Part shown: piece by piece, positions 4,084 through 53,907 of the stretch
Position numbering within the stretch: the stretch's first letter is position 1
How the letters are laid out: each line of letters starts with the position of its first letter
From: Nitrososphaeria archaeon
GTDB lineage: Archaea > Thermoproteota > Nitrososphaeria > JACIWG01
Assembly (NCBI GenBank): GCA_026413865.1
Contig: JAOAKB010000005.1
Coordinates: 803 to 64,802 of the forward strand
DNA length: 64,000 bases
Direction: 5' to 3'
The notes under the pieces: generated by a model
What the model was told of the DNA's origin: nothing
Databases searched by the model: none
What the model saw: only the letters and a program-made list of their open reading frames with translations
Made by a program: the position numbers and the translations under genes

Positions 4084-4721
4084 GTGTAAAGTCTCCTCTG
4101 ACAAAGTTTCCTCTAAAGATTTTAGTGGATACTGAAAGTATTTCTAAAAGGAGGGTTTGGGAAATCAATATATCAGACCTTCTAAAACAGTTTATTACAC
4201 TATATTCAGATTACAAGAAGGATCTGAGGCTTTATGGTACTGTAGCATTATCTTCCTCTATCATATACAAGTTGCAAGTTGAATCGTTTTTCCTTTTCGA
4301 AAAACAGGTTTCAAGGGTTTTTGAGAGTGGAGAGCTTTCTCTTCCAACTATTATTGATGTACCATATAGGCATGAAGTTTATTCTACATCTGTCGATGAC
4401 CTCATTGTTGCCCTAGAAAGGATAATATTCTCTTCTCCAACCAAGAGGATGAAAAAGGAGGAGACACTTGTTCCTGTTGCAAGTCTTGAGCTTCCAACTG
4501 ACCCCTTTTTAATGAACATTGGTGAAATGTTGAAGGAGTTTAAGAAGAAGCTTTTGTCGTTAATGGATGAAGAGCATGCTATAAGTTTTCGAAAGATGGT
4601 TGAAGGCTTACCTATTATTGAGGTTGTAAGAAATTTTCTTTTAACACTTTTTGTGGCGCAGGAAGAGTTTGTTGACCTTATCCAAAAAGAAGATGATATA
4701 ATAATAAAGGTGCTTGTTTAA
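4080..4721 (+). CDS. scpA: Segregation and condensation protein A (kleisin)
   Basis: 213 aa. Start overlaps the smc stop by 4 nt and its stop abuts scpB, the classical smc-scpA-scpB arrangement. Sequence identity itself is only weakly recognisable. Confidence 0.65.
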   Translation: MSVKSPLTKFPLKILVDTESISKRRVWEINISDLLKQFITLYSDYKKDLRLYGTVALSSSIIYKLQVESFFLFEKQVSRVFESGELSLPTIIDVPYRHEVYSTSVDDLIVALERIIFSSPTKRMKKEETLVPVASLELPTDPFLMNIGEMLKEFKKKLLSLMDEEHAISFRKMVEGLPIIEVVRNFLLTLFVAQEEFVDLIQKEDDIIIKVLV

Positions 4722-35336: not shown

Positions 35337-36515
35337 CTAGGTAACTATTTGAGGAAGCTTTCCTTTTACTGAAGCATAATATATTTCTAGCATAGAAAAG
35401 TCTAGAACAGACTCGAAAGCATGCAATCCTATTCCAAGCTGCTTTAGCATGCTAAAATATTTTAGATACAGTCTTCTCATTTCAGGAGAAGTGGGTCCAA
35501 CACATGGTGAGCCAGGTATTCTTGGACTCACATCGAAGACAAAAAATTCTAGTTTCTTTCCTTCTGGGTCCCCTGGGTCATATGCTATTGCACCCTGTAG
35601 TGCAAATGGGCCTATTAGGCCTGGAGGATATTCTTCACAACATACCTTCAGAAACTTTTCAGCAGCCCTATAAACTAGAGGCTTCTGTGACTCTCTCATT
35701 GTTAAGCCATAATGTCCTATTTCCTCATTTTTTACCGGAACATCAAGTTCAAGCTGTTCTCTTGCTGTAAGATTCAGTATTCCTGAAAGATTAACCTGCC
35801 TTCTATCATCGAAGCCTAGAAAATCAAATTCATCAAAAACATCATTTAAAGCCCATGCGTGAAAGTTTGCATTATATCTTGGCCCAAGAACAAACTCTTC
35901 TATAACCGCATTTTTTAAATCTTCTAAACTTATAACATTCTTCTTAGCCAAATCTTCAGCCTTACTCCAATATTCTTCAGCATTCTTTGCTGTAAAGAAT
36001 GCACGTTCTAAAGGTTTAGCCTTTTGAGCGACCTTTACAATAACGAGCCTATCAATCTTTTCCGGAGAATCAAACCTCTTAGGCGTCCTAACACCAGCCT
36101 TCTCAAGAAGCCAGTACTGGTTTCTTTCAAGCTTTCTTTCTTCAGTCTTTAGCATAAACCTGTTCCCATACATTGGAACCAAAAACTTTTCTTCAAGATT
36201 CTTGTAGCCAACATATACTGTTAAGGAACGGTTTGGTAAAAATATCGTATTAAGGTTCCTAAGCTTTTCCTGCACACTTTCATCAACTATATTAGAAAAC
36301 TTTTCTAAAACTATAGCATGATCAAACAAGTGCCTATTATATAATGTATACAATTCTTCCCTACCCTTTTCACATACCACAACAGTTTTGAATCCAAAGG
36401 CTTTTGCGGCTGAACCAACTTCTTCAGCCGAATGTGAACCAATAACTCCTATGGTAACATTTTTTTGATCATATTTTTGAACAACTTCTTTAACTTCTTT
36501 TTTGGAAACGGGCAT
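35337..36515 (-). CDS. purP: 5-formaminoimidazole-4-carboxamide ribonucleotide (FAICAR) synthetase PurP
   Basis: 392 aa. N-terminal IGVIGSHSAEEV and an ATP-grasp layout typical of archaeal PurP. Confidence 0.8.
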   Translation of the reverse strand: MPVSKKEVKEVVQKYDQKNVTIGVIGSHSAEEVGSAAKAFGFKTVVVCEKGREELYTLYNRHLFDHAIVLEKFSNIVDESVQEKLRNLNTIFLPNRSLTVYVGYKNLEEKFLVPMYGNRFMLKTEERKLERNQYWLLEKAGVRTPKRFDSPEKIDRLVIVKVAQKAKPLERAFFTAKNAEEYWSKAEDLAKKNVISLEDLKNAVIEEFVLGPRYNANFHAWALNDVFDEFDFLGFDDRRQVNLSGILNLTAREQLELDVPVKNEEIGHYGLTMRESQKPLVYRAAEKFLKVCCEEYPPGLIGPFALQGAIAYDPGDPEGKKLEFFVFDVSPRIPGSPCVGPTSPEMRRLYLKYFSMLKQLGIGLHAFESVLDFSMLEIYYASVKGKLPQIVT

Positions 36516-43566: not shown

Positions 43567-44457
43567 CTAGTCCACCTCCACAATAATCTTTACTCCAGCG
43601 GCCTTAATTGCATCTAATACTTCTTTCACATATTCCTTTGTATACTTGCTTCTATTTAAAGCCTCTCTTCCTATTTTTACTGCTATTGTTGCAGGCTGTA
43701 ATCTTGTCCACTTGAATCTAACTGTAGCCTTTGGTGTACTTACAGCAAATATGCTTTCATCAAAGTAGCTTGAATCGAACACACCTATCCTTTCTCTTAT
43801 AAGCTCAGAATATTTCCATGTTGAAGCTTTTCTATGCAAGAATATTGTTTTGGTCTCCATCTTATCATTTGCCTCAACATCATTTATGTAGCATTTACCG
43901 TTTTTTATTACTATCTTGTCTCCTTTTTCGAAAACCCCTTTAAGGTTTACGTATGTGTTAAAGTCTAGGTTTGATATTGAAGGGTTTTCTATCCTGTCCG
44001 ATGCATCAATTTCTAATGTTGGTGTAGTCTTTTCTTCTATACTGTAGCTTCCAAGTGTCCACGTGTCCCCTGACATAACACTTACTTCATATGATGAGTC
44101 GGCTGGAGGGTTTTCTATAATTTGGATACCCTCTCCTACAATACTCTTTAGTATTGAGTGTATAGAATGTAGAGTTCCTCCTCCGGTAAAGTCTACTATT
44201 GCCCTAACTATTCTACTCCTATACCTCTCATCCTCTTCTCCTTCTAATCTTTTTAGTCCAAATATTGATCCCATTAGGTCTAGGTCTCCATCTGATGCTG
44301 TTTCTATCCAGTGTGAAAGCATCATATTGTATGCTAGCTCTTTTGTGTAATCGAGTTCTGTTCCAATTGCTTTAACAAGTTTAAAGATTATTGAAGACTT
44401 TATCCAGTATTTGTAAAAGTCTGGTAGGCGGGAGAATATTTTGTCCGCGCTAGACAA
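43567..44457 (-). CDS. Baseplate protein, gpI / Mu gp48 (DUF2313)-like
   Basis: Position directly after the Baseplate-J gene, with RLPDFYKYW near the N-terminus. TTG at 44457 is 1 nt after the J stop, with AGGAGG 11-16 nt upstream. This is preferred over the GTG at 44517. Confidence 0.5.
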   Translation of the reverse strand: MSSADKIFSRLPDFYKYWIKSSIIFKLVKAIGTELDYTKELAYNMMLSHWIETASDGDLDLMGSIFGLKRLEGEEDERYRSRIVRAIVDFTGGGTLHSIHSILKSIVGEGIQIIENPPADSSYEVSVMSGDTWTLGSYSIEEKTTPTLEIDASDRIENPSISNLDFNTYVNLKGVFEKGDKIVIKNGKCYINDVEANDKMETKTIFLHRKASTWKYSELIRERIGVFDSSYFDESIFAVSTPKATVRFKWTRLQPATIAVKIGREALNRSKYTKEYVKEVLDAIKAAGVKIIVEVD

Positions 44458-44458
44458 T

Positions 44459-46021
44459 CTATTCCATCCTCCTATACGAGATTCTAATGTTCCTTGCCAG
44501 AACCTTTTCCTCGTCACTTACCACAATATTTTCTTTTTCACTTCTAACTACACCTTCTGCTACTCTATGTGCTTCTATAACAAGTTCTGCTATATCTCTT
44601 ACGCCTTCCACTTCTAATGCGAGGGCTGCAGCCTTATAGAATAGTACATCTTCACCTATCTTTAGACTGGAAAGGTAGCTTCTGATTTGCTCTTCAACTT
44701 TTCTTGAAACCTCTGCTTCCGACGCCTTCTTTTCTAAAACTAGTGTTATGTCCACATCAATGTAGACTGGTTTTGGTCTCGAAAATTCAACTTTTATGCC
44801 CGCAGCTCTTGTCCTTTCTATTGCCTCAATAATTTTTTCAGGGTCTCCTCCGTCCACTATAACCTTTATTATTCCTGGAACATTGTCTACAGTCTCCTTC
44901 ACTAGCACAGAGCTTACTCCCTCAACTGACTTTATTGTTGTTTCAAGTGATGGTAGTGTTGCTTTTCCAGCTATTTCGAGTGCACGTTTTGCTCTATCTC
45001 TGAGTTCTCTATCGCTTTCTGCGTCAACTCCTCCTGTTATGTCAACCTTGTTTATCACATATTCTATTCCTACAAGTGGTTGTGGTAATACTGTTATTGA
45101 CCCTGCTAGAACGTTTCCCCTTGGTCCTGGAATTGTGCAGACTATTGGGACATCTGCTTCCCAGTTTTCCTCTGCTGTAGGCTTTAGTATGGAATCTTCT
45201 ACTGTAGTATATGTTATGACCTCCTCTGGTTTTGCAGAATATGTTGATACTCTTGTCCCCTTTGGAATGGGAATTTCACGGTATGCTATATAGTCTACAG
45301 TGAATGTTGTTCCTTGGTCAGGCCTTTTTCCTGTAGGAAGCCATCTTATCCTATTTTCTGAAATAATATAATCAACTTCGCTTCTAAACTCTGCTGCTAT
45401 ACCATTTGCTAGTCCCTTCACTTTTGAAACTTCTTTTACAAACCTGTTCCTTAAAGTATATTCTATTGAACCATCATAGAATATTATTTCTCCATTAACC
45501 TGTATTGTTTCTGGTTCACTTCTTCTACCGAATGTTACGTATCCTGAAGCTGGTTGTGGCGGTTTTCTTCTTATACCAAGTATTGCTACCACAAGGTCAA
45601 GTGCTTCACCTGACGCAGTATCTATAAATCCTGAATAATATGCCCGCTCTATTAGAAGGTTAAGATACTCTATTTCTCTTCCTACCGCCTCTAATATTGT
45701 TCTAACAACACTTCCTGGAGAAGTGTCCGTTATCTCAGCCCTTTCAGGCTTATATGTTACATTAAATTTTGTTCCATCATCGGGTCTACTGCCTCCATAA
45801 ATCCATTCAATATAATTTTCAGAAAACCTGTAGTCCAAATCTTTTACAAAAGTCTTCTTTAAGCCGTTAACAAAACCTTCTACTGATATTATATCCAAAA
45901 CCTTTCCAGACAATATGTATCTTACAACATTTTTTGAGTAAACGAATTCCTCTGACGCTTCGCTCAACATTCTAAGCATTTCTCCAACAATCTGCTGGAA
46001 AGTTTTCTTTTCAATTGGCAC
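44459..46021 (-). CDS. Baseplate J-like (T4 gp6 / P2 gpJ family) wedge protein
   Basis: 520 aa. SPGSVVRTILEAVGREIEYL motif typical of the Baseplate_J family. Abuts the gp25-like gene. Confidence 0.75.
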   Translation of the reverse strand: MPIEKKTFQQIVGEMLRMLSEASEEFVYSKNVVRYILSGKVLDIISVEGFVNGLKKTFVKDLDYRFSENYIEWIYGGSRPDDGTKFNVTYKPERAEITDTSPGSVVRTILEAVGREIEYLNLLIERAYYSGFIDTASGEALDLVVAILGIRRKPPQPASGYVTFGRRSEPETIQVNGEIIFYDGSIEYTLRNRFVKEVSKVKGLANGIAAEFRSEVDYIISENRIRWLPTGKRPDQGTTFTVDYIAYREIPIPKGTRVSTYSAKPEEVITYTTVEDSILKPTAEENWEADVPIVCTIPGPRGNVLAGSITVLPQPLVGIEYVINKVDITGGVDAESDRELRDRAKRALEIAGKATLPSLETTIKSVEGVSSVLVKETVDNVPGIIKVIVDGGDPEKIIEAIERTRAAGIKVEFSRPKPVYIDVDITLVLEKKASEAEVSRKVEEQIRSYLSSLKIGEDVLFYKAAALALEVEGVRDIAELVIEAHRVAEGVVRSEKENIVVSDEEKVLARNIRISYRRME

Positions 46022-46429
46022 TTAAACCACCTCCAATAGCATTGAATAAAATACTGTTAAGGGTCTTCTCTTTCCAACTGGTATAACAACAATCTCAATA
46101 TCGATCCTGTTTGGGTCTAAAATGTTGGGTGAAACTGTAACGCTTACAATTTCTTTGATTCTAGGCTCTCCAGATAGTGCATTAAGTACATATGTTCTTG
46201 CAAGGTTTCTTGTTTCTTCAGTGTTAGGTTGCCCTATTAGGTCATATAATTTTGAGCCATAGTCAGGGTGTCCTAGTTCCTCTAATTCGCCAAGGTCTGT
46301 CATTAGCCTGTGCACTATTGCCTGGGCAAGATTTTCTTCCTCCTGTGCAAGTTGTAGATCTCCATCTTTTACTTGTAGGTCTGCGCCTGCTTCATCAAAC
46401 TTTAATTTTAGGTCTGATTTTAATGACAT
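46022..46429 (-). CDS. gp25/GPW-like baseplate wedge (sheath-initiator) protein
   Basis: 135 aa. ...AIVHRLMTDLGE...GHPDYGSKLYDLIG...GEPRIKEI pattern of the GPW_gp25 family. Confidence 0.75.
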   Translation of the reverse strand: MSLKSDLKLKFDEAGADLQVKDGDLQLAQEEENLAQAIVHRLMTDLGELEELGHPDYGSKLYDLIGQPNTEETRNLARTYVLNALSGEPRIKEIVSVTVSPNILDPNRIDIEIVVIPVGKRRPLTVFYSMLLEVV

Positions 46430-46438
46430 GCTGTCACC

Positions 46439-47158
46439 CTAGTTTATGTTCACTGTTGCACCCTTTATTGTAGTCCTGCCACTTGCTTCCATGTTCATGT
46501 CAGCTGAAGATGTTAGCTTTAGGTTTGCGTCCGTGTTTATCTTCAAATCCGCTCCAGCATTGACCTCAAGCTCCTTTTCACTTTCGACCTTTATCTTTGA
46601 AGCTGAAAGTGATAGTGTTCCTCCTGAAGAGATTTTTGTGTTGCCTTTGGCTTTTACTACAACGTCTGCCTTCGACTCTATCACAACATCTCCATCTTTG
46701 TGCACTATAACCTTTGTTTCTCCTGTCTTAACCATAATATCTTCGTCCGTAATTTTTATCATTGTTCCCTCTGGAAACTCTAAATATATTCTTCTTTTCT
46801 CTGCATTTTTTGTGTAGGGTGGTACAAATACTATCTCTTCTAAATCGTTTACTGGAGGTCTATCTTCGTCATTGTATAGTCTTCCTATTATGACTGGTAG
46901 GTTTATGTCTCCGTTAACAAACGATACTAGGACTAGGTCTCCCACTCTCGGGGGGCATGCTAGACCTATTACCTGTGTTGCAATTTGAACGTGCTGAAGC
47001 TCTATTTCTCCACCCTTAATCTTGACATTACATTCATAGTTTTCTTTATCGTTCGGTGTACTATGTGGGAATACTGATGTTACGACACCCAATTCTATAG
47101 TATAATTTTTTTTAGCCTCGTTTTCAGCGATTTTTCTTATAAGCTCCACTATGCTCAT
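46439..47158 (-). CDS. Central spike (gpV / gp5 OB-fold + C-terminal beta-helix; VgrG-like)
   Basis: LGVVTSV...RVGDLVLVSFVNGDINLPVIIGRLYN OB-fold motif, then repetitive beta-helix VVIESKADVVVKAKGNTKISSGGTLSLSASKIKVESEKELEVNAGADLKINTDANLKLTS. Confidence 0.8.
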   Translation of the reverse strand: MSIVELIRKIAENEAKKNYTIELGVVTSVFPHSTPNDKENYECNVKIKGGEIELQHVQIATQVIGLACPPRVGDLVLVSFVNGDINLPVIIGRLYNDEDRPPVNDLEEIVFVPPYTKNAEKRRIYLEFPEGTMIKITDEDIMVKTGETKVIVHKDGDVVIESKADVVVKAKGNTKISSGGTLSLSASKIKVESEKELEVNAGADLKINTDANLKLTSSADMNMEASGRTTIKGATVNIN

Positions 47159-47159
47159 A

Positions 47160-48161
47160 CTATTTCACTTCTATTCCTCCTATTAGTGTAGTGAATCCTT
47201 CCCTAAAGTTTAGGTGGTGTTCTACTTCAACAACCTCAAACTCTATAGGCTCTTGAGTTTCTGGAATGTTTTCGACCTTTACTGTGTCACTAACTTTAAT
47301 CTTAGGTTCTCCCAGTGTCCTCAAAAATGTCATGAAATCTATCTTTCTTCTAGAATATATGTTTTCTGCTACTGTTGTAACTGTATCCGTGTCCTTTATT
47401 GTATAGTCCTTTAAAATTAGTTCATGAGCTCCTTTTCCTGTAGATGTTCCGGAATAATCTTTTTTTGAAAGCCAATGAAATGTTTCTCTTCCAGCCCAGC
47501 TTGATGGGCTTTCTCCATAAACTGTTATGCCACCAATCGGATTAAACAATTTAATCAAACTTACTTCTATAATGTTTTCTCCATATTTAAGTGTATAAGG
47601 TTCTTTTCTCTCATATGCTTTAAAGTTTAGTAGTCCTTCTGATGTTGTATAGCATATGTAATTGCATTTTTCCGCTAGCCTTGCTATGTGCTCGTATGCA
47701 TTCATGTTTTCTCCTATAACATAGTATGGGAACATTATCCCATCCATTATTTTCTCATGTTTTAGGGTCTCCTCTCCTTTTTCAGTCAGCCTCTTATTTA
47801 ATGTGTCCAATATATCTGAAACAATGTTTCCCGCTGTCTGGTTAAGGTAAACCCTATTCAATCTCAATATTGTTAGGTGTAGTGCATGGTTTAGTGCGTA
47901 TACTCTTGTCTGTCTAAAACTTTTTTCTATTAGGTCAACTATTCCAGAAAATACTGTCTGTAGGCTGTCCTCGTATCCTATCTTAACAAGAACTTTTTCC
48001 CCCCTCTGCACCTTCTCTGTCTCCTCATCTCTTGTTAGTGTTAATTCTAGTGTGTCAACTTTTGGACATAGTCCACACTTTACTCTTATGCCAAAAACTT
48101 TTGTTGAAGATGGTGTAAACGTTTTCGAACCAAATGTTATCTCATAGTTTGGGTAATACAA
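47160..48161 (-). CDS. Baseplate hub, late-control-gene-D / gp27-like
   Basis: 333 aa. N-terminal pattern (i.i.g..f......sl.V......vDtLeLtL...GekVlVkiGY...lqtVFsGiVd) typical of gpD/Mu gp44. Position directly upstream of the spike. Confidence 0.65.
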   Translation of the reverse strand: MYYPNYEITFGSKTFTPSSTKVFGIRVKCGLCPKVDTLELTLTRDEETEKVQRGEKVLVKIGYEDSLQTVFSGIVDLIEKSFRQTRVYALNHALHLTILRLNRVYLNQTAGNIVSDILDTLNKRLTEKGEETLKHEKIMDGIMFPYYVIGENMNAYEHIARLAEKCNYICYTTSEGLLNFKAYERKEPYTLKYGENIIEVSLIKLFNPIGGITVYGESPSSWAGRETFHWLSKKDYSGTSTGKGAHELILKDYTIKDTDTVTTVAENIYSRRKIDFMTFLRTLGEPKIKVSDTVKVENIPETQEPIEFEVVEVEHHLNFREGFTTLIGGIEVK

Positions 48162-48163
48162 TA

Positions 48164-48661
48164 TTATTTCACCTGCCTTAAAATGTCATAGACTTCTTTA
48201 ATTATAGACTCTGTCTCCTCTTTTGCAGCTTCTTCTTGGCTTGGTGCCGGCTTCTCCTCCTGTTTTGTGCTCTTATGCTCTTTTAGGACTAGAATATAAC
48301 AGTAGCTTGTGGGAGAGTAGCTTACTATTGTTGCCCTAAAACTTTCTATCACAACCTCTGAAATTTCTGTTATAGATGGTATGTCTGAAACAAACTGTAC
48401 TGGTTTGCCGAGCTTAAATTTAGAGTTAAGGTCTTGGAATGTGTTCTTTGAATTTGGTCCAGTTAAGAGTCCTTCAACTATAATCGTTATAGGATATCTT
48501 CCGAAGTCTTGGAATACGCTTCCATCATGTCCTGGTATCTTTATTTCATAAACTTGTCTTCTGTTCGATAGGGTAACATTTATTATGCTTCTTGTCTCTA
48601 ATATTGTTCCCTCCTGGTCTACTCTTTTAACGAGTTCGAGGTCATCTAATTTTATATTCAA
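48164..48661 (-). CDS. Hypothetical baseplate/tube-adaptor protein (Mu gp43 / XkdP slot)
   Basis: 165 aa, between the tape-measure candidate and the hub. Assignment is by position only. Confidence 0.35.
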   Translation of the reverse strand: MNIKLDDLELVKRVDQEGTILETRSIINVTLSNRRQVYEIKIPGHDGSVFQDFGRYPITIIVEGLLTGPNSKNTFQDLNSKFKLGKPVQFVSDIPSITEISEVVIESFRATIVSYSPTSYCYILVLKEHKSTKQEEKPAPSQEEAAKEETESIIKEVYDILRQVK

Positions 48662-48673
48662 AATATTTCACCT

Positions 48674-50506
48674 TCAAAATATTGGGCCATAATATCTTCT
48701 AAACTGTTCTCTCAAAATCTGTGTAATCTTTCTTTCAAGCTCCCATAGGTCTAATTCTGCACCCTCTGGCACTGTTATATTGAAAATGTTCTGTATCTCG
48801 TGTTCCATTAGACTTTGGCTTGGGTGCGTGGGCTGTATTGTGTAAGGTTGTCTTATGGTTGGGGATAATGTTTCACGTCTTGCTTCTTCTTCAGCTATTC
48901 TGAATATTCTTGATGTTTCTAGAAACTGTGATACTGTTGTCATCATTGGAGAAGGCTCTGCTGGTCTCACAACTTTTACATCATATAATAGCCTGTCATA
49001 TAATTGTATTAGGTTTTGGAGAATGTTTTTTGATATTGTTGATAGTGGATAGTATGCCTCTAAACCAAAATATTTTATGGCTTCTGTCTCTTGAGCTAAT
49101 GCTGGAAATGTTTCCAGAATGTTCAAGACTTTTGTGTAAACAGCTTTTCTTGTAAAGTCCTCGAACTTTAATATATCATGTGCTGGTGGATACACTGTAC
49201 TTGTTTGCGTGTAGACTTTTCCTATTATACTGTGAGGGCTTAAGCCAGTAGAAGATAATATTATTGTGTATGGTCTCACTATTGCTTTATGAGTGTAGAA
49301 TATACTTAAGGTGTCTAAGCTAGTATATGGCAATGTCTGTGAATATACTGTAGTTGAAAGTCTATGAGTATAGAATGGATATTCTTTGGCTAAAAGGTGT
49401 ATGTAGTGTGTTAGTGGCGTGGATGTAAAAGCTGATTTTATGGTTTCAATACCTCTATCCTTTTCTATGTTGACTAAAGCTGTTGGTTCGAGTAAAGCTT
49501 GCTTTATAGTGTCTGAAAAAGTTTTTGAAAGTATTTCTTGAAGTTTGGGCACCTGTGTAGCTAATATGAAATAGGATAGAATGTATGGTATACTCAATAT
49601 GTTCTTGTACTCATGCAACGGATGTATTATTGTTTCTCTTATTGGTGATGGAATATTTTTTTCTAGTTCACCAAATTCTGTGAACGTTTTCTTGGCCAGT
49701 GATTGGATAAACCTATAGTCTACGCTTTCTAACTTTTCTCCAAATTCTATTAGTGGGCTGGAGATATAATATTTTGTGAACACTTCTTCTGGCATTATAA
49801 ATTGTTTTGGAATAATATATCTTGTCTCAGGCAATTGGCTGCCTAATTGTGTTAGGATGTTAACTAGACTGCTTATGTACTTAAATGGTTCCCCCAACTC
49901 CTGTCTTAATTCAAGTATCTTCTCTTCTCTAGTCTCATCATATACTTTAGCAGTCTCTATTTTAGATGTTATCGTTTCCTCTATGGGTTTTGTTTCACTA
50001 ATTCTCCTTGTTTCTGGAACAATTTTTTCCTCTAACTTTAACTCTTTCTTAATAGCCTTTTCTGGTGCAATATATCCTGTTCCTATAGTATATTGGCCTA
50101 CACTTTTTTCAGCCTGCATGATATACGATGTACTCTCTCCCACGATCTTGTATGCTTCACTCAAGCTTTCTGGCATTATAACATGTCTTATAAAATGCTC
50201 TGGTACTTTAGCCTGTCTACCTGCCACAATATTTCTTAACAGGTTTATTGTATAAGATATTCTTGGCTGAGCATATATTCTCTGTAATGGTTCAAAAAAT
50301 TCTTCTCTAACACCTTCTATGGGAGCTGAAATACTTGTTTGTGGTACAATTTTTCTTGGAACATAATATCTTGAAATATAACTATTAATATTAATAAAAA
50401 CCTTCATTAAATCTTTAAAAAATTTAGTGTATGATAAGATAATTTTTGATAGAGGCTCAAATAGTATATCCATTATCCTATTAAGGACCATATTAAATTG
50501 GCTCAA
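48674..50506 (-). CDS. Tape-measure protein candidate
   Basis: 610 aa, the second-largest gene in the operon after the 707-aa metzincin-signature protein (39623..41746), located after the chaperone genes as in tailed-phage modules. No sequence motif recognised. Confidence 0.45.
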   Translation of the reverse strand: MSQFNMVLNRIMDILFEPLSKIILSYTKFFKDLMKVFININSYISRYYVPRKIVPQTSISAPIEGVREEFFEPLQRIYAQPRISYTINLLRNIVAGRQAKVPEHFIRHVIMPESLSEAYKIVGESTSYIMQAEKSVGQYTIGTGYIAPEKAIKKELKLEEKIVPETRRISETKPIEETITSKIETAKVYDETREEKILELRQELGEPFKYISSLVNILTQLGSQLPETRYIIPKQFIMPEEVFTKYYISSPLIEFGEKLESVDYRFIQSLAKKTFTEFGELEKNIPSPIRETIIHPLHEYKNILSIPYILSYFILATQVPKLQEILSKTFSDTIKQALLEPTALVNIEKDRGIETIKSAFTSTPLTHYIHLLAKEYPFYTHRLSTTVYSQTLPYTSLDTLSIFYTHKAIVRPYTIILSSTGLSPHSIIGKVYTQTSTVYPPAHDILKFEDFTRKAVYTKVLNILETFPALAQETEAIKYFGLEAYYPLSTISKNILQNLIQLYDRLLYDVKVVRPAEPSPMMTTVSQFLETSRIFRIAEEEARRETLSPTIRQPYTIQPTHPSQSLMEHEIQNIFNITVPEGAELDLWELERKITQILREQFRRYYGPIF

Positions 50507-50509
50507 ACA

Positions 50510-50692
50510 CTATTCACCTTCCTCCTCAACCTTTATTCTCGTTATACCTTGTGCCGCAAGCCTCGACTGAGCCAATTGCTCAGCACGATATGCTAGGGCT
50601 GAAATCAAAAAAAGGATTTGGTCCCGAGTTAGGTCTCGGGGGCTATCCGCAAGCTTATAGCCACAGTCTAGGCAGAGTGTCGCCAACTCCAT
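50510..50692 (-). CDS. Small ORF, candidate frameshift extension of the tail assembly chaperone (gpT-like)
   Basis: 60-aa ORF. Its reading frame stays open upstream to 50755 and spans the A9 tract at the end of the preceding gene. Confidence 0.4.
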   Translation of the reverse strand: MELATLCLDCGYKLADSPRDLTRDQILFLISALAYRAEQLAQSRLAAQGITRIKVEEEGE

Positions 50693-50717
50693 TCCATCAG
50701 GGCTTCTGACAAAGTTT

Positions 50718-51089
50718 TCAATGTCTAACTTTTTTTTTAGCCTCCTCCTCGCTTCTCACGACACCGCTTAATTCGAAAACCTTCATCCCAATATATTCTG
50801 GTACACCAAACTTCATTGTCTCCAGGTCTTGTAGTGTGAGTTTTGGTTCCACTAGCCCTTCTAAGGCTGCTTTTCTTAATATTTCAAAATTTTTTGAAAT
50901 GTCTATTTTACTAAAGTCTGGTGTCCCATCCTCCTTTACTGGAACACTTCCTATTGAAGAAAATATTTTTGAAAGTTCTCCATCTGTTAGAGGCCTTATT
51001 GTGACTTCAGCATCATATTCTCTAATATACAATGTTTCCCTTCTGTTTGCTCCTTCTAAGATAATGTCTTTAGTAAGTTTTCTTGTCAT
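50718..51089 (-). CDS. Tail assembly chaperone-like protein (gpG / XkdN slot)
   Basis: 123 aa, acidic, between tube and tape measure. IRPLTDGELSKI resembles TAC families. Confidence 0.5.
   Translation of the reverse strand: MTRKLTKDIILEGANRRETLYIREYDAEVTIRPLTDGELSKIFSSIGSVPVKEDGTPDFSKIDISKNFEILRKAALEGLVEPKLTLQDLETMKFGVPEYIGMKVFELSGVVRSEEEAKKKVRH
50730..50738 (-). other. A9 homopolymer: candidate recoding (+1/-2 frameshift or transcriptional slippage) site
   Basis: The minus strand reads GCT AAA AAA AAA GTT AGA CAT TGA. The +1 frame reads CTA AAA AAA AAG TTA GAC ATT GAA... and continues into the 50510..50692 ORF. Confidence 0.4.
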
Positions 51090-51090
51090 C

Positions 51091-51492
51091 TTATTGCTCC
51101 CTTACTCTTGTTGCTGTAAAAGTGTATAGGCTTATTCCTACACCGTTTGCGTCTAGAGTAAATGTTTTGTCTTCAAGGTAGCAGTCGTCGAATGAAATAG
51201 TCTTTATAGCTGTTCCTCTCATCTTCAACTCTACTACAAGCTGGAACGATTTGACCTCTGGAAGTGGTGAAAGTAGTATGCTGTCAAACTTTTGATATGT
51301 TGAACGTACTCTTATTACACCATGAACATATAATGGGCCATAGTCTACTCCTATTCTCTCATCTCCACCAATATTGTATACGTTCTGCCTATTCCTAATA
51401 ATCTTCCATTCTATAGACTGTAGTCCTGGAATAACTTCTCCGTCAACCTTAACACTACTTACATTTGCGGAAACAACAGTTGGTTCTGGCAT
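51091..51492 (-). CDS. Tail tube protein
   Basis: 133 aa, 8 nt downstream of the sheath gene. Beta-rich. Size and position match XkdM/Mu gpM-type tubes. Confidence 0.6.
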   Translation of the reverse strand: MPEPTVVSANVSSVKVDGEVIPGLQSIEWKIIRNRQNVYNIGGDERIGVDYGPLYVHGVIRVRSTYQKFDSILLSPLPEVKSFQLVVELKMRGTAIKTISFDDCYLEDKTFTLDANGVGISLYTFTATRVREQ

Positions 51493-51500
51493 CTACTCAT

Positions 51501-52850
51501 CTACACCTCCACGGTTATGGTTGCGTAAACGTAGTCTATTGCTCTCACAGGCCTCACTGCGATGTCCACTCTCACGATACCCTGTGCGAAGTCCATTTCT
51601 GAAGAATATACGTCGACCATAAAAGGTGGCTTTTTACCGTCAACGCTTGGAACAATCGCTCCCTCTCTCTCCATTGAAAGGAAGAATTCTGTTATCTTTT
51701 CTCTTAAAGCAAGTCTTCCACCTGGACTGTTCAATGTACCAATAAAGTTTTCAGCAACATTTTTTACACCACGTACAGCACGGTCAGCTATTCTTGTCAC
51801 ACTAATCTGTTCCTTGCTTGTTGAAATACCCTTTTCAACAATAATACCTCTTCCTCTTCTCATTTCTACAGCAAGTATACCATTTTTTACAAGCTCCGTT
51901 AACTCGCTTGGAGAATACCTTCTTTCAAGAGTATCTATACCTCTTAGAGGTTTAAATGTTGGTGATTCATAATATGGTAAATTACTTATTAGACCTGCTA
52001 CTGCACCAGCAACACCATATGGTGCCACAAGAACAAACCTGTCGCTTGCAAGGGCTTCTGTCCTCTTAACAATATCCTTAACACTTTCACCAGGAGCGAC
52101 TGCTCCAATACCAATCCTGTTCATTGCATCCTTACTCATATTATGACAATGTGCGTCAACAAGTGCGTGAACTGCTGGATCACTTATATCTGCTACCAAA
52201 ACAATGTCAATATCTGGTTCAAGCTCCAGAGCCTGCAATGCCTTTTCAACAGAACTCTTTGAAATTGTTTCAGGCGTCCCTCCAGTCAACTTAACTTCAA
52301 CTGGAGCTGGAATCGCCACAGTCTTCTTCTTACTCAAATCTTCTACAGAAACAAGTTTAGAATTTGCACTTACAAAGCTTGGTGCATACCTTTCGCTGGC
52401 AGAGTCCATTGTAAGTTCATCAAATGTTTCTGAAATCTTTCCATCACTTACCTCCATCCTGAAGACTCCTTCCTTAGAACCTTTCATCACTATAACCTCA
52501 ATATTGTTTCCAGCTGGTCCAGGAGATTTTGCCTTAACCTTCATAACAGCATTTCCGTTAACATCCTGGAATACTGCTTCTGCAGCTTTTCCAGGTTCTC
52601 CCTCAACTCTTACAGCAAAAACTTCTGAAACACCATTTAAGAAAGCTAGCCTTGCATCCCTTGTTAAAGTATATTCTGTGTTTGAGCCAAACTTATCCAT
52701 GTACTCTCTATAGCTTGTTACAGGCACTGCCTCAAAAGAAATTCCCTTTTCTGCGGTTCCTATAAGCCCAACCACACCTGCAGGGTGTAGTTGTTGCGGA
52801 ACTATTTCTTTTACTACGCGTATTTCTACGCCCGGAAGAATACGGGGCAA
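51501..52850 (-). CDS. Contractile tail sheath protein
   Basis: 449 aa. N-terminal PGVEIRVV and the C-terminal region (NGILAVE...GRGIIVEKGISTS...RIADRAVRGVKNVAENFIG...N...LR.KITEFL) are typical of the phage sheath family. TTG start. Confidence 0.8.
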   Translation of the reverse strand: MPRILPGVEIRVVKEIVPQQLHPAGVVGLIGTAEKGISFEAVPVTSYREYMDKFGSNTEYTLTRDARLAFLNGVSEVFAVRVEGEPGKAAEAVFQDVNGNAVMKVKAKSPGPAGNNIEVIVMKGSKEGVFRMEVSDGKISETFDELTMDSASERYAPSFVSANSKLVSVEDLSKKKTVAIPAPVEVKLTGGTPETISKSSVEKALQALELEPDIDIVLVADISDPAVHALVDAHCHNMSKDAMNRIGIGAVAPGESVKDIVKRTEALASDRFVLVAPYGVAGAVAGLISNLPYYESPTFKPLRGIDTLERRYSPSELTELVKNGILAVEMRRGRGIIVEKGISTSKEQISVTRIADRAVRGVKNVAENFIGTLNSPGGRLALREKITEFFLSMEREGAIVPSVDGKKPPFMVDVYSSEMDFAQGIVRVDIAVRPVRAIDYVYATITVEV

Positions 52851-53022: not shown

Positions 53023-53907
53023 ATGAAATTGTCTGTTGATGTAGTTGTCGTCGGCCACTTTTCCATTGACGAAAACATTGGTCCCAAGACAAGAATATCA
53101 AATATTTTGGGTGGTGCACCAGTATATTCTGGATCAACCTTCTCAAAGTTAGGTTTGAAGGCTGGAATATGTTCCTGCGTAGGCAAAGACCACTATAATC
53201 GTGCGATAATGTTCTGTGAAAGTATGGGTATCGACTATAAGGGCTTACATGTATGCGGGATAAGGACACTTTACTTTCAAAATATCTATGATGGAGAAGG
53301 GAATAGGGTTCAAAAGTGCTATAATATTTTAAGAAAACTTTCTACCAAAGATATTCCAAATAATTATCTAGATTGTAGTGCCTACTATGTATCACCTTTA
53401 ATGAATGAGATCTCATCAAATTTTTTGGAAATTATAAGGTTTAGGGAAAATATTATAATGCTTGACCCTCAAGGTCTTATGAGAAAGACTGATAAAGATG
53501 GGAACGTAAGTGTCACTTTTGAAGAAGAAAGGTTATTAAAGTTTTTCGAGAAAGTGGATATTGTAAAGATAGGAAAGGATGAATTGAAGGCAATAAAATT
53601 AAATGAAAAAGAAATCTTAAAACTGATAAGAGCTTCTGGAGCAAAAATAGGTATAGTCACAAGAGGAAAGGATCCAGTAATAGTATTATCTGAAAAGGGT
53701 TTATTTGAAGTAAACACTATCGATGTTAATGTTGAAGACCCTACAGGGGCTGGAGATGTTTTCGGTGCAGCATTCCTTACAGAATACTTAAGAAGCAAGG
53801 ATGTAAAAAGGGCTGTAAAATTCGCTAACATTGCGGCAGGCCTAAAGATAAGGTATAGAGGTCCAGAAGGTTTTCCAACACAAAAAAATATAGAACAACT
53901 TCTCTAG
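53023..53907 (+). CDS. PfkB-family carbohydrate/nucleoside kinase
   Basis: DPTGAGDVFGAAF signature and an N-terminal GG dipeptide (ILGGAPV). Confidence 0.8.
   Translation: MKLSVDVVVVGHFSIDENIGPKTRISNILGGAPVYSGSTFSKLGLKAGICSCVGKDHYNRAIMFCESMGIDYKGLHVCGIRTLYFQNIYDGEGNRVQKCYNILRKLSTKDIPNNYLDCSAYYVSPLMNEISSNFLEIIRFRENIIMLDPQGLMRKTDKDGNVSVTFEEERLLKFFEKVDIVKIGKDELKAIKLNEKEILKLIRASGAKIGIVTRGKDPVIVLSEKGLFEVNTIDVNVEDPTGAGDVFGAAFLTEYLRSKDVKRAVKFANIAAGLKIRYRGPEGFPTQKNIEQLL

Follow-up and report, generated by a model that had tools for sequence, protein, structure and literature searches.

The window analysed here is a stretch of 64,000 nucleotides (nt) from a Nitrososphaeria archaeon (contig JAOAKB010000005.1, positions 803 to 64,802), on whose minus strand an open reading frame (ORF) of 123 amino acids (aa) overlaps a second stretch that is open in the +1 frame. 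We propose that the two form one recoded gene, encoding a tail assembly chaperone of a head-less archaeal contractile machine. Programmed recoding of the gpG/gpGT type, known from the chaperone pair of phage lambda, is very probable at this site. The two frames meet at a run of nine adenines (A9), and analysis of 135 non-redundant related loci reveals that this run is not there by chance. The level at which the frame changes (RNA polymerase or ribosome) and the protein partners are matters that we infer, and slippage of RNA polymerase is probably the main mechanism in the window's +1 locus.

In the proposed scheme, normal decoding of the A9 would yield a short form of 123 aa (...EEEAKKKVRH), and a minority of products would change frame at the run to yield a long form of 192-193 aa (...EEEAKKK(K)LDIENFVRSPDG...EEEGE), which would end 3 nt before the gene in the tape-measure slot. 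The polymerase would slip on the nine-A tract, whose length is that of the RNA:DNA hybrid, and the resulting A8 or A11 mRNAs would then be translated normally. An A9 mRNA would encode 123 aa (...AKKKVRH), an A8 mRNA 192 aa (...AKKK-LDIENF...), an A11 mRNA 193 aa (...AKKKK-LDIENF...) and an A10 mRNA a predicted harmless product of 121 aa (...AKKKS). In chaperones of the lambda G/GT type, the short form is in excess, both forms bind the tape measure, the extension binds the tube protein, and both forms are absent from the finished particle. If lambda gpG/gpGT is a guide, the tape-measure protein would be coated by the N-terminal domain common to both forms, tube subunits would be brought in by the extension, and the frequency of slipping would set the ratio of short to long form.

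Two reading frames and a conserved A9 run

The short, gpG-like chaperone ORF lies in the zero frame (50718..51089, minus strand, read from the ORF and its translation) and ends GAG GAG GAG GCT AAA AAA AAA GTT AGA CAT TGA. Its AAA AAA AAA, in the context T-A9-G, is the candidate slip site (50730..50738, minus strand) and encodes K118-K120. The open stretch in the +1 frame (50510..50755, minus strand) begins after a TGA at 50758-50756, with its first codon at 50755, and ends with a TAG at 50512-50510. It reads EARRRLKKKLDIENFVRSPDGMELATL... and passes through the run as CTA AAA AAA AAG TTA GAC ATT GAA... The 72 codons 3' of the run (50728-50513, with the stop at 50512-50510) form the conserved, gpT-like C-terminal extension, and a 60-aa ORF with an ATG start (50692..50510) is contained in the same frame. 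The -1 frame gives AKKKS and then a TAG. Re-reading and translating the minus strand bore out what a sequence-only reading had said of the position of the A9 and of the zero, +1 and -1 frames. The fusion of about 195 aa that it gave is not borne out, and the conceptual fusion computes to 192 aa (A8 mRNA or a +1 shift) or 193 aa (A11 mRNA).

Related loci were collected in a scan of one genome per species, which gave 69 loci, and in an independent metagenome scan, which gave 80 more, or 135 non-redundant loci in all; the N part and the C part of each locus were located separately by tblastn. The species scan covers Nitrososphaerota, Bathyarchaeia, Thermoproteota (Methanosuratincolia, Thermoprotei), Hadarchaeota, Geoarchaeota and Methanobacteriota (Methanocellales, Methanomicrobiales, Methanosarcinales, Methanotrichales, Thermococci), and the related loci span at least six archaeal phyla and GC contents of 0.36-0.69. 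In 129 loci the N and C parts lie in different frames, joined at an A-run; the frame of the extension is +1 in 31 of these and -1 in 98. The run is an A9 in 110 loci (28 of them +1 and 82 -1), A7 or A8 in 12 and A6 in one (all -1), A10 in four (one +1, three -1) and A11 in two (both +1). The six remaining loci read in a single frame, five with an A10 and one with an A7. The sequence-only reading had suggested a look at whether homologous loci keep the slippery run and the two-frame arrangement, and 129 of the 135 keep both. The +1 geometry found in the window is a lineage variant of a family in which most relatives have the ordinary -1 geometry.

Two contigs with an archaeal-type chaperone and an A9 are binned as bacterial, namely L024 (DATLAV010000049.1) and L036 (DATKWN010000118.1), assigned to Patescibacteria and Krumholzibacteriaceae, respectively. 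Since L036 is near-identical to Bathyarchaeota loci, mis-binning is more likely than transfer.

The run is conserved at the nucleotide level. All 48 of the 48 phase-0 loci carry AAA AAA AAA, against 3.8 expected from the lysine codon usage of each locus, and the A9 is maintained at GC contents up to 0.69 and at AAA shares of lysine codons down to 0.10. It is usually preceded by T and followed by G, and the zero-frame stop follows at a median of 3 nt, as against about 25 nt in control off-frames. No stimulatory RNA structure is conserved: stretches of 50-60 nt up- and downstream of the run, folded against shuffles in 70-127 loci (60 nt in one analysis, 50 nt downstream in another), gave a mean z of about 0 to -0.5, and A9 and short-run loci did not differ in folding (p=0.59). 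The codons after the run in the +1 loci (GTT, GAT, GCT) are neither stops nor obviously slow, and no structure is conserved; the usual signals of +1 ribosomal frameshifting are therefore absent. That the homopolymer is the sole conserved element of the frame-change signal is well supported.

In the window's own genome (1.45 Mb, 34% GC), nine A/T runs of at least nine bases are observed where a first-order Markov model leads one to expect about 195, and only few of the nine fall within long ORFs. The A9 is also the longest homopolymer of the whole window. It therefore exceeds chance on three counts, being the longest such run here, of a kind avoided genome-wide, and conserved in relatives at the nucleotide level. 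We note two other members of this roughly 20-fold depleted class outside the window: an A9 within a 347-codon ORF that is not split (contig C15:18596-18604), and an 11-base A/T run near the start of a 407-codon ORF (contig C18:7633-7643; A11 on the plus strand, T11 on the coding strand).

The level of the frame change

A tree of the concatenated N and C parts requires at least seven switches between +1 and -1 geometry, five of them forced by well-supported branches. The switches are 1-nt indels that adjoin the run and lie outside it, the run itself staying A9, as seen between L005 (A9 GAATAGA) and L003 (A9 GATAGA) and between the sister loci L029 and L045. Runs shorter than nine occur in none of the 31 +1 loci and in 13 of the 98 -1 loci (Fisher p=0.037, uncorrected for phylogeny or possible duplicates). 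A polymerase that makes both insertions and deletions would allow lineages to flip between +1 and -1 by single-base indels and still keep the long form.

Slippage of the polymerase is favoured for five reasons: the run is held at exactly nine, where a ribosomal site needs a heptamer only; one and the same A9 serves both frames and survives repeated flips; the +1 geometry is found only with runs of at least nine; no +1 ribosomal signal follows the run in the +1 loci; and such runs are otherwise purged from the genome. A rather than T runs would be used because a T run in the sense strand brings archaeal transcription to an end. We lean towards the wider reading of T-A9-G as a conserved programmed transcriptional-slippage site in Archaea, at which A8, A10 and A11 transcripts would set the ratio of short to long chaperone in at least six phyla.

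Precedents for slippage on such runs are well described. Bacterial RNA polymerase slips efficiently on nine A or T, nine being the length of the RNA:DNA hybrid (PMC5009743), and programmed slippage on A/T runs is known from Thermus thermophilus dnaX (A9), the transposases of insertion sequence (IS) elements and Shigella mxiE/spa13 (PMC5009743, PMC3711429). Similarly to these sites, the site described here has an A9 conserved at the nucleotide level, homologues that use either frame direction, no need of an RNA structure, and nearby stops in the unused frames. It differs from them in that its product is a virion-like assembly chaperone and its slippage a prediction, and in that the established cases are bacterial, viral or eukaryotic, no case for an archaeal RNA polymerase having been found in the searched literature. 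A further parallel is offered by the magnesium chelatase frameshift genes of archaea and bacteria, methanogens included, in which a conserved A-run likewise joins two ORFs (PMC3711429). In an E. coli reporter, their poly-A site worked with efficiencies of 10% for A7, 40% for A9 and 63% for A11 (PMC3711429). In contrast to the chaperone family, the unrelated chelatase shows -1 geometry alone, and that study likewise left the choice between transcription and translation undecided.

The same sites can be read as ribosomal. The ribosome would then change frame by a +1/-2 shift or by sliding of the peptidyl-tRNA-Lys in the window, and by a classical -1 shift on A_AAA_AAA in most relatives. A -1 shift on an X_XXY_YYZ heptamer does not suit the locus in the window, where the -1 frame reads AKKKS* and the extension is +1, and suits 98 relatives geometrically. 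Any A9 contains the heptamer A_AAA_AAA, and the 12 loci with A7 or A8 and the one with A6, all of them -1, suit a heptamer better than polymerase slippage. Lambda-type chaperones and the G-T pairs of haloarchaeal tailed viruses have been read as ribosomal frameshifts, those of HVTV-1 and HCTV-1/2/5 as -1 and that of HSTV-2 as +1, and sliding on A runs has been reported (PMC5009743). On the other hand, the ribosome would have to use the same conserved A9 for +1 and -1 shifts across those switches, with neither a stop or hungry codon after the run in the +1 loci nor a conserved stimulatory structure, and a heptamer alone would not call for exactly nine A's to be kept in 110 of 135 loci. IS elements with +1 geometry, moreover, use transcriptional realignment, +1 ribosomal shifting being unknown there (PMC5009743; PMC3711429). 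Taken together, a ribosomal mechanism appears possible but rather doubtful.

Several points nevertheless weigh against polymerase slippage and the reading built upon it. Slippage, at whichever level, is a prediction from DNA sequence, and we know of no archaeal RNA polymerase for which transcriptional slippage has been demonstrated; nor did we find it demonstrated in the searchable literature. Nowhere in the searched literature on slippage and frameshifting in the chaperones of archaeal injection systems is this site described, and what came up for archaeal viruses were predicted ribosomal frameshifts only. An A9 in any phase holds A_AAA_AAA, which makes a ribosomal -1 shift an equally good fit for the 98 -1 loci. 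In the 13 loci with A6-A8 (all -1), the run is short for a polymerase to slip on efficiently, and a ribosome that slides along poly-A could, in principle, arrive in either frame. The Fisher test on run length ignores phylogeny and possible duplicates. As to the proteins, sequence families offer the chaperone assignment weak matches, namely to the PHROG tail assembly chaperones phrog_344 (E=0.011) and phrog_14268 (E=0.054) and, for two of the 15 members, to Pfam Gp41_Mu (E=0.026), and the putative tape-measure identity of the downstream ORF is drawn from position and size alone.

In-frame copies and the start of the extension

A search with the conceptual fusion returned at least 260 archaeal homologues, nearly all of 119-127 aa and ending a few residues past a near-invariant KKK. 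Three of them (P0003-5, 190-193 aa) and the N-truncated P0025 read straight into the conserved C-terminal part. Their DNA has an A10 in frame, where relatives have an A9 with the extension in the -1 frame, and the in-frame versions (P0003-5, P0025 and L074) are the exact +1A (A10) form of -1-geometry loci. The metagenome contigs with an in-frame A10 are L070:1780-2352, L071:1804-2385, L072:1880-2452, L073:876-1298 and L074, and L073 has a second frame break in its N part. Homopolymer errors, variants within populations and assembly from transcripts are all possible origins of these contigs, and a source in metatranscriptomes would make them direct evidence.

Read as population variants, they would agree with phase variation at the DNA level, in which slipped-strand mispairing at replication would switch subpopulations from an A9, encoding the short form only, to an A8 or A10 with a fused gene, and back. 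Five of the 135 non-redundant contigs have the in-frame A10, and poly-A/T tracts are slippery for DNA polymerases too (PMC3711429). The out-of-frame state is nevertheless found in 129 of the 135, close relatives from independent assemblies (the window, L001, L002 and L077) are all A9, the second frame break in L073 suggests a low-quality contig, and an assembly process for which short and long form are required in a fixed ratio is ill served by an on/off switch. As the principal mode, phase variation is therefore unlikely, and it may contribute in a minor way.

Recoding at the run bears directly on how the extension is translated. The extension peptide is conserved from the first codon past the run, with the consensus xExExFVRSPEGxELAxLCLDxGYKLAxxPxDLTRDQIxFLxAALAxR...GxTRIV, and the 12 codons between the run and the ATG at 50692 (LDIENFVRSPDG) are part of its most conserved stretch. 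The first possible start codon in the extension frame is absent in L005 and L073 and lies 40-65 codons inside the domain of about 70 codons in many loci. An arrangement of two ordinary genes, with the 60-aa ORF translated on its own from the ATG at 50692 and the A9 incidental in an AT-rich genome, accords with the presence of that ATG and with clades that have an ATG at the run. The ATG is, however, an Ile codon in the 99%-identical L001, the codons upstream of it are conserved, the conservation of the A9 goes far beyond codon usage, and the long form of an in-frame relative is modelled as folding into one unit. Two ordinary genes are accordingly very unlikely, and an independent start of the 60-aa ORF is rejected for the family, the start being unconserved and the codons upstream of it conserved. 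At the level of the family, we predict that the extension is translated only via the frame change. The sequence-only reading had called for gpG/gpGT-like recoding by a +1/-2 shift or by RNA-polymerase slippage, and the conserved run, the frames and an extension that has no conserved start support it.

An ATG directly at the run is found in few clades only. In some Bathyarchaeia (L011-L013, around 4350-4365), the zero-frame stop abuts the run and overlaps an extension-frame ATG in an ATGA overlap (AAAAAAAAATGATGG), and in the Methanosuratincola loci an ATGATG follows the run immediately. Translational coupling could add to recoding or replace it in the clades with ATG at the run (L010-13, L015, L019, L021, L023). 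At its other end, the extension carries acidic tails whose length varies greatly across the chaperone family; in an uncultured Methanocella (L061:4359-4637) an acidic tandem repeat (DDENVDDENVDDENV) closes the extension, and the copy of the cultured Methanocella sp. MCL-LM lacks this repeat.

Homopolymers are error-prone, but a true run of A8 or A11 in a single ORF of 192/193 aa is rejected as extremely improbable, because independent assemblies of close relatives, made from different samples, share the A9 and the +1 geometry (L001 at 99-100%, L002 at about 95%, L077 at 97% and L003/L004 at about 83% identity) and complete genomes elsewhere (Methanocella sp. MCL-LM and Ca. Methanosuratincola verstraetei LCB70) carry an A9 in the same arrangement. 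A pseudogene was likewise rejected, the N and C parts both being conserved across phyla.

The chaperone, known systems and the gene cluster

For structure prediction we took P0003, a long form that is in frame by nature, together with an alignment of short forms and extensions, and it folds confidently as one protein (predicted local distance difference test score, pLDDT, 91.3; predicted template modelling score, pTM, 0.80). In the model, a helix (residues 115-130) runs across the KKK junction. Its top match in the PDB is the HK97 tail assembly chaperone 2OB9 (probability 1.0, E=0.026, TMt 0.58), and in the viral structure library BFVD it matches many annotated tail assembly chaperones (E 1.8e-3 to 0.05), among them those of Halobacterium phage ChaoS9 and HCTV-1, as well as an uncharacterised protein of Methanobacterium virus Drs3. 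NCBIfam gave no match for the chaperone, the extension has no significant match in Pfam, PHROGs or NCBIfam, and none of 50,697 phage and archaeal virus records matched the fused protein in tblastn. The fold match, of moderate strength, supports a gpG/gpGT-like tail assembly chaperone; we make the assignment because of the fold matches together with the synteny of tube, chaperone and large ORF in 62 loci. The tail-chaperone identity that the sequence-only reading had proposed agrees with this chaperone fold, with a tube recognised by its fold upstream, and with a tape-measure slot downstream.

The chaperone pairs lambda gpG/gpGT, P2 gpE/E+E' and Mu gp41/gp42 are the closest known systems (Levin 1993; Xu, Hendrix and Duda 2004; reviewed in PMC5009743). 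Function and gene order here correspond to the lambda G/GT (P2 E/E+E') arrangement: two overlapping frames lie between the tube and tape-measure genes, the short form ends just past the slippery site, the predicted long form adds a small domain that has no start of its own, and the N-terminal fold matches a solved lambdoid (HK97) chaperone. In contrast to lambda, the site is a fixed A9 homopolymer instead of an X_XXY_YYZ heptamer, the extension lies in the +1 frame, as it does in 31 of 129 relatives, the cluster belongs to an archaeon and showed no head genes among the ORFs scanned (35-54 kb of the window), and there is no significant sequence similarity to described chaperone families. The haloarchaeal virus G-T pairs share with this gene the archaeal host, the tail chaperone pair and the occurrence of both -1 and +1 geometries, and the chaperones of HCTV-1 and ChaoS9 are among the fold matches. 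They differ from a conserved A9 homopolymer in a chromosomal, head-less family of at least six phyla, for which the phage and virus records hold no sequence homologue of the fused protein. What appears to be new is that a fixed A9 replaces the heptamer, that one protein family uses both frame directions, and that the systems are chromosomal and head-less across many phyla.

If polymerase slippage is indeed at work, it would be a mode of gene expression new for Archaea, in which recoding rests on very few cases, mostly predictions. The chaperone family offers more than 130 natural variants of one site, with both frames, runs of A6-A11 and GC contents of 36-69%, and two tractable organisms, namely Methanocella sp. 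MCL-LM, whose genome is complete, and Ca. Methanosuratincola verstraetei LCB70, which is grown in enrichment. Consequently, the question of polymerase or ribosome becomes directly testable in archaea with this family. For annotation, the predicted long chaperone is missing from the gene calls of almost all these genomes, where its C-terminal domain goes unannotated or appears as a small, truncated ORF. Head-less archaeal injection machines would also follow the G/GT logic in assembling their tails.

The chaperone and its extension sit in a tightly packed minus-strand operon that runs from sheath and tube through chaperone and extension to a 610-aa ORF and the baseplate genes. First in the operon is the tail sheath gene (51501..52850, minus strand; 449 aa; Pfam Phage_sheath_1, E=1.5e-16, above cut-off). 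The adjacent 133-aa protein (51091..51492, minus strand) has no sequence-family match in Pfam, PHROGs or NCBIfam, and its AlphaFold model (pLDDT 85.9) points to a tail tube, with Foldseek matches in the PDB to the tubes of phage 812, PVC, diffocin and AFP (E down to 7e-8, TM about 0.7). The 610-aa ORF (48674..50506, minus strand), likewise devoid of matches in Pfam, PHROGs and NCBIfam, starts 3 nt after the extension stop. In 62 related loci, that stop is likewise followed, at a median distance of 3 nt, by the start of a large ORF (median length 648 aa), the counterparts varying widely in length, up to 1124 aa. By position and size, the 610-aa ORF would be the tape-measure gene.

The baseplate module (43567..48661, minus strand), recognised by Pfam, comprises a DUF6046-like protein of 165 aa, a GPD-like hub of 333 aa, a Phage_base_V spike of 239 aa, a gp25-like sheath initiator of 135 aa, a Baseplate_J protein of 520 aa and a Mu Gp48-like protein of 316 aa, with a PAAR gene close by. 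This context shows that the chaperone is part of a contractile-tail assembly operon. The cluster is bordered by a PfkB kinase gene (53023-53907) and a DUF1246/DUF1297 gene (35337-36515). Among the ORFs scanned we found no head or packaging genes, and no Afp15-like AAA+ ATPase or DUF4255 cap, although for the latter two no dedicated search was made. With these borders, and with neither head nor packaging genes among the ORFs of 35-54 kb, we class the cluster as a contractile injection system without a head, or a tailocin-like locus, and a provirus tail module was rejected. The tail module seen by the sequence-only reading stands as far as contractile-tail genes surround the chaperone; it belongs to a head-less system rather than to a provirus. 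Near the 5' end of the spike gene (46439-47158) lies a further homopolymer, a T8 on the plus strand (47106-47113; A8 on the coding strand), with no frame split.

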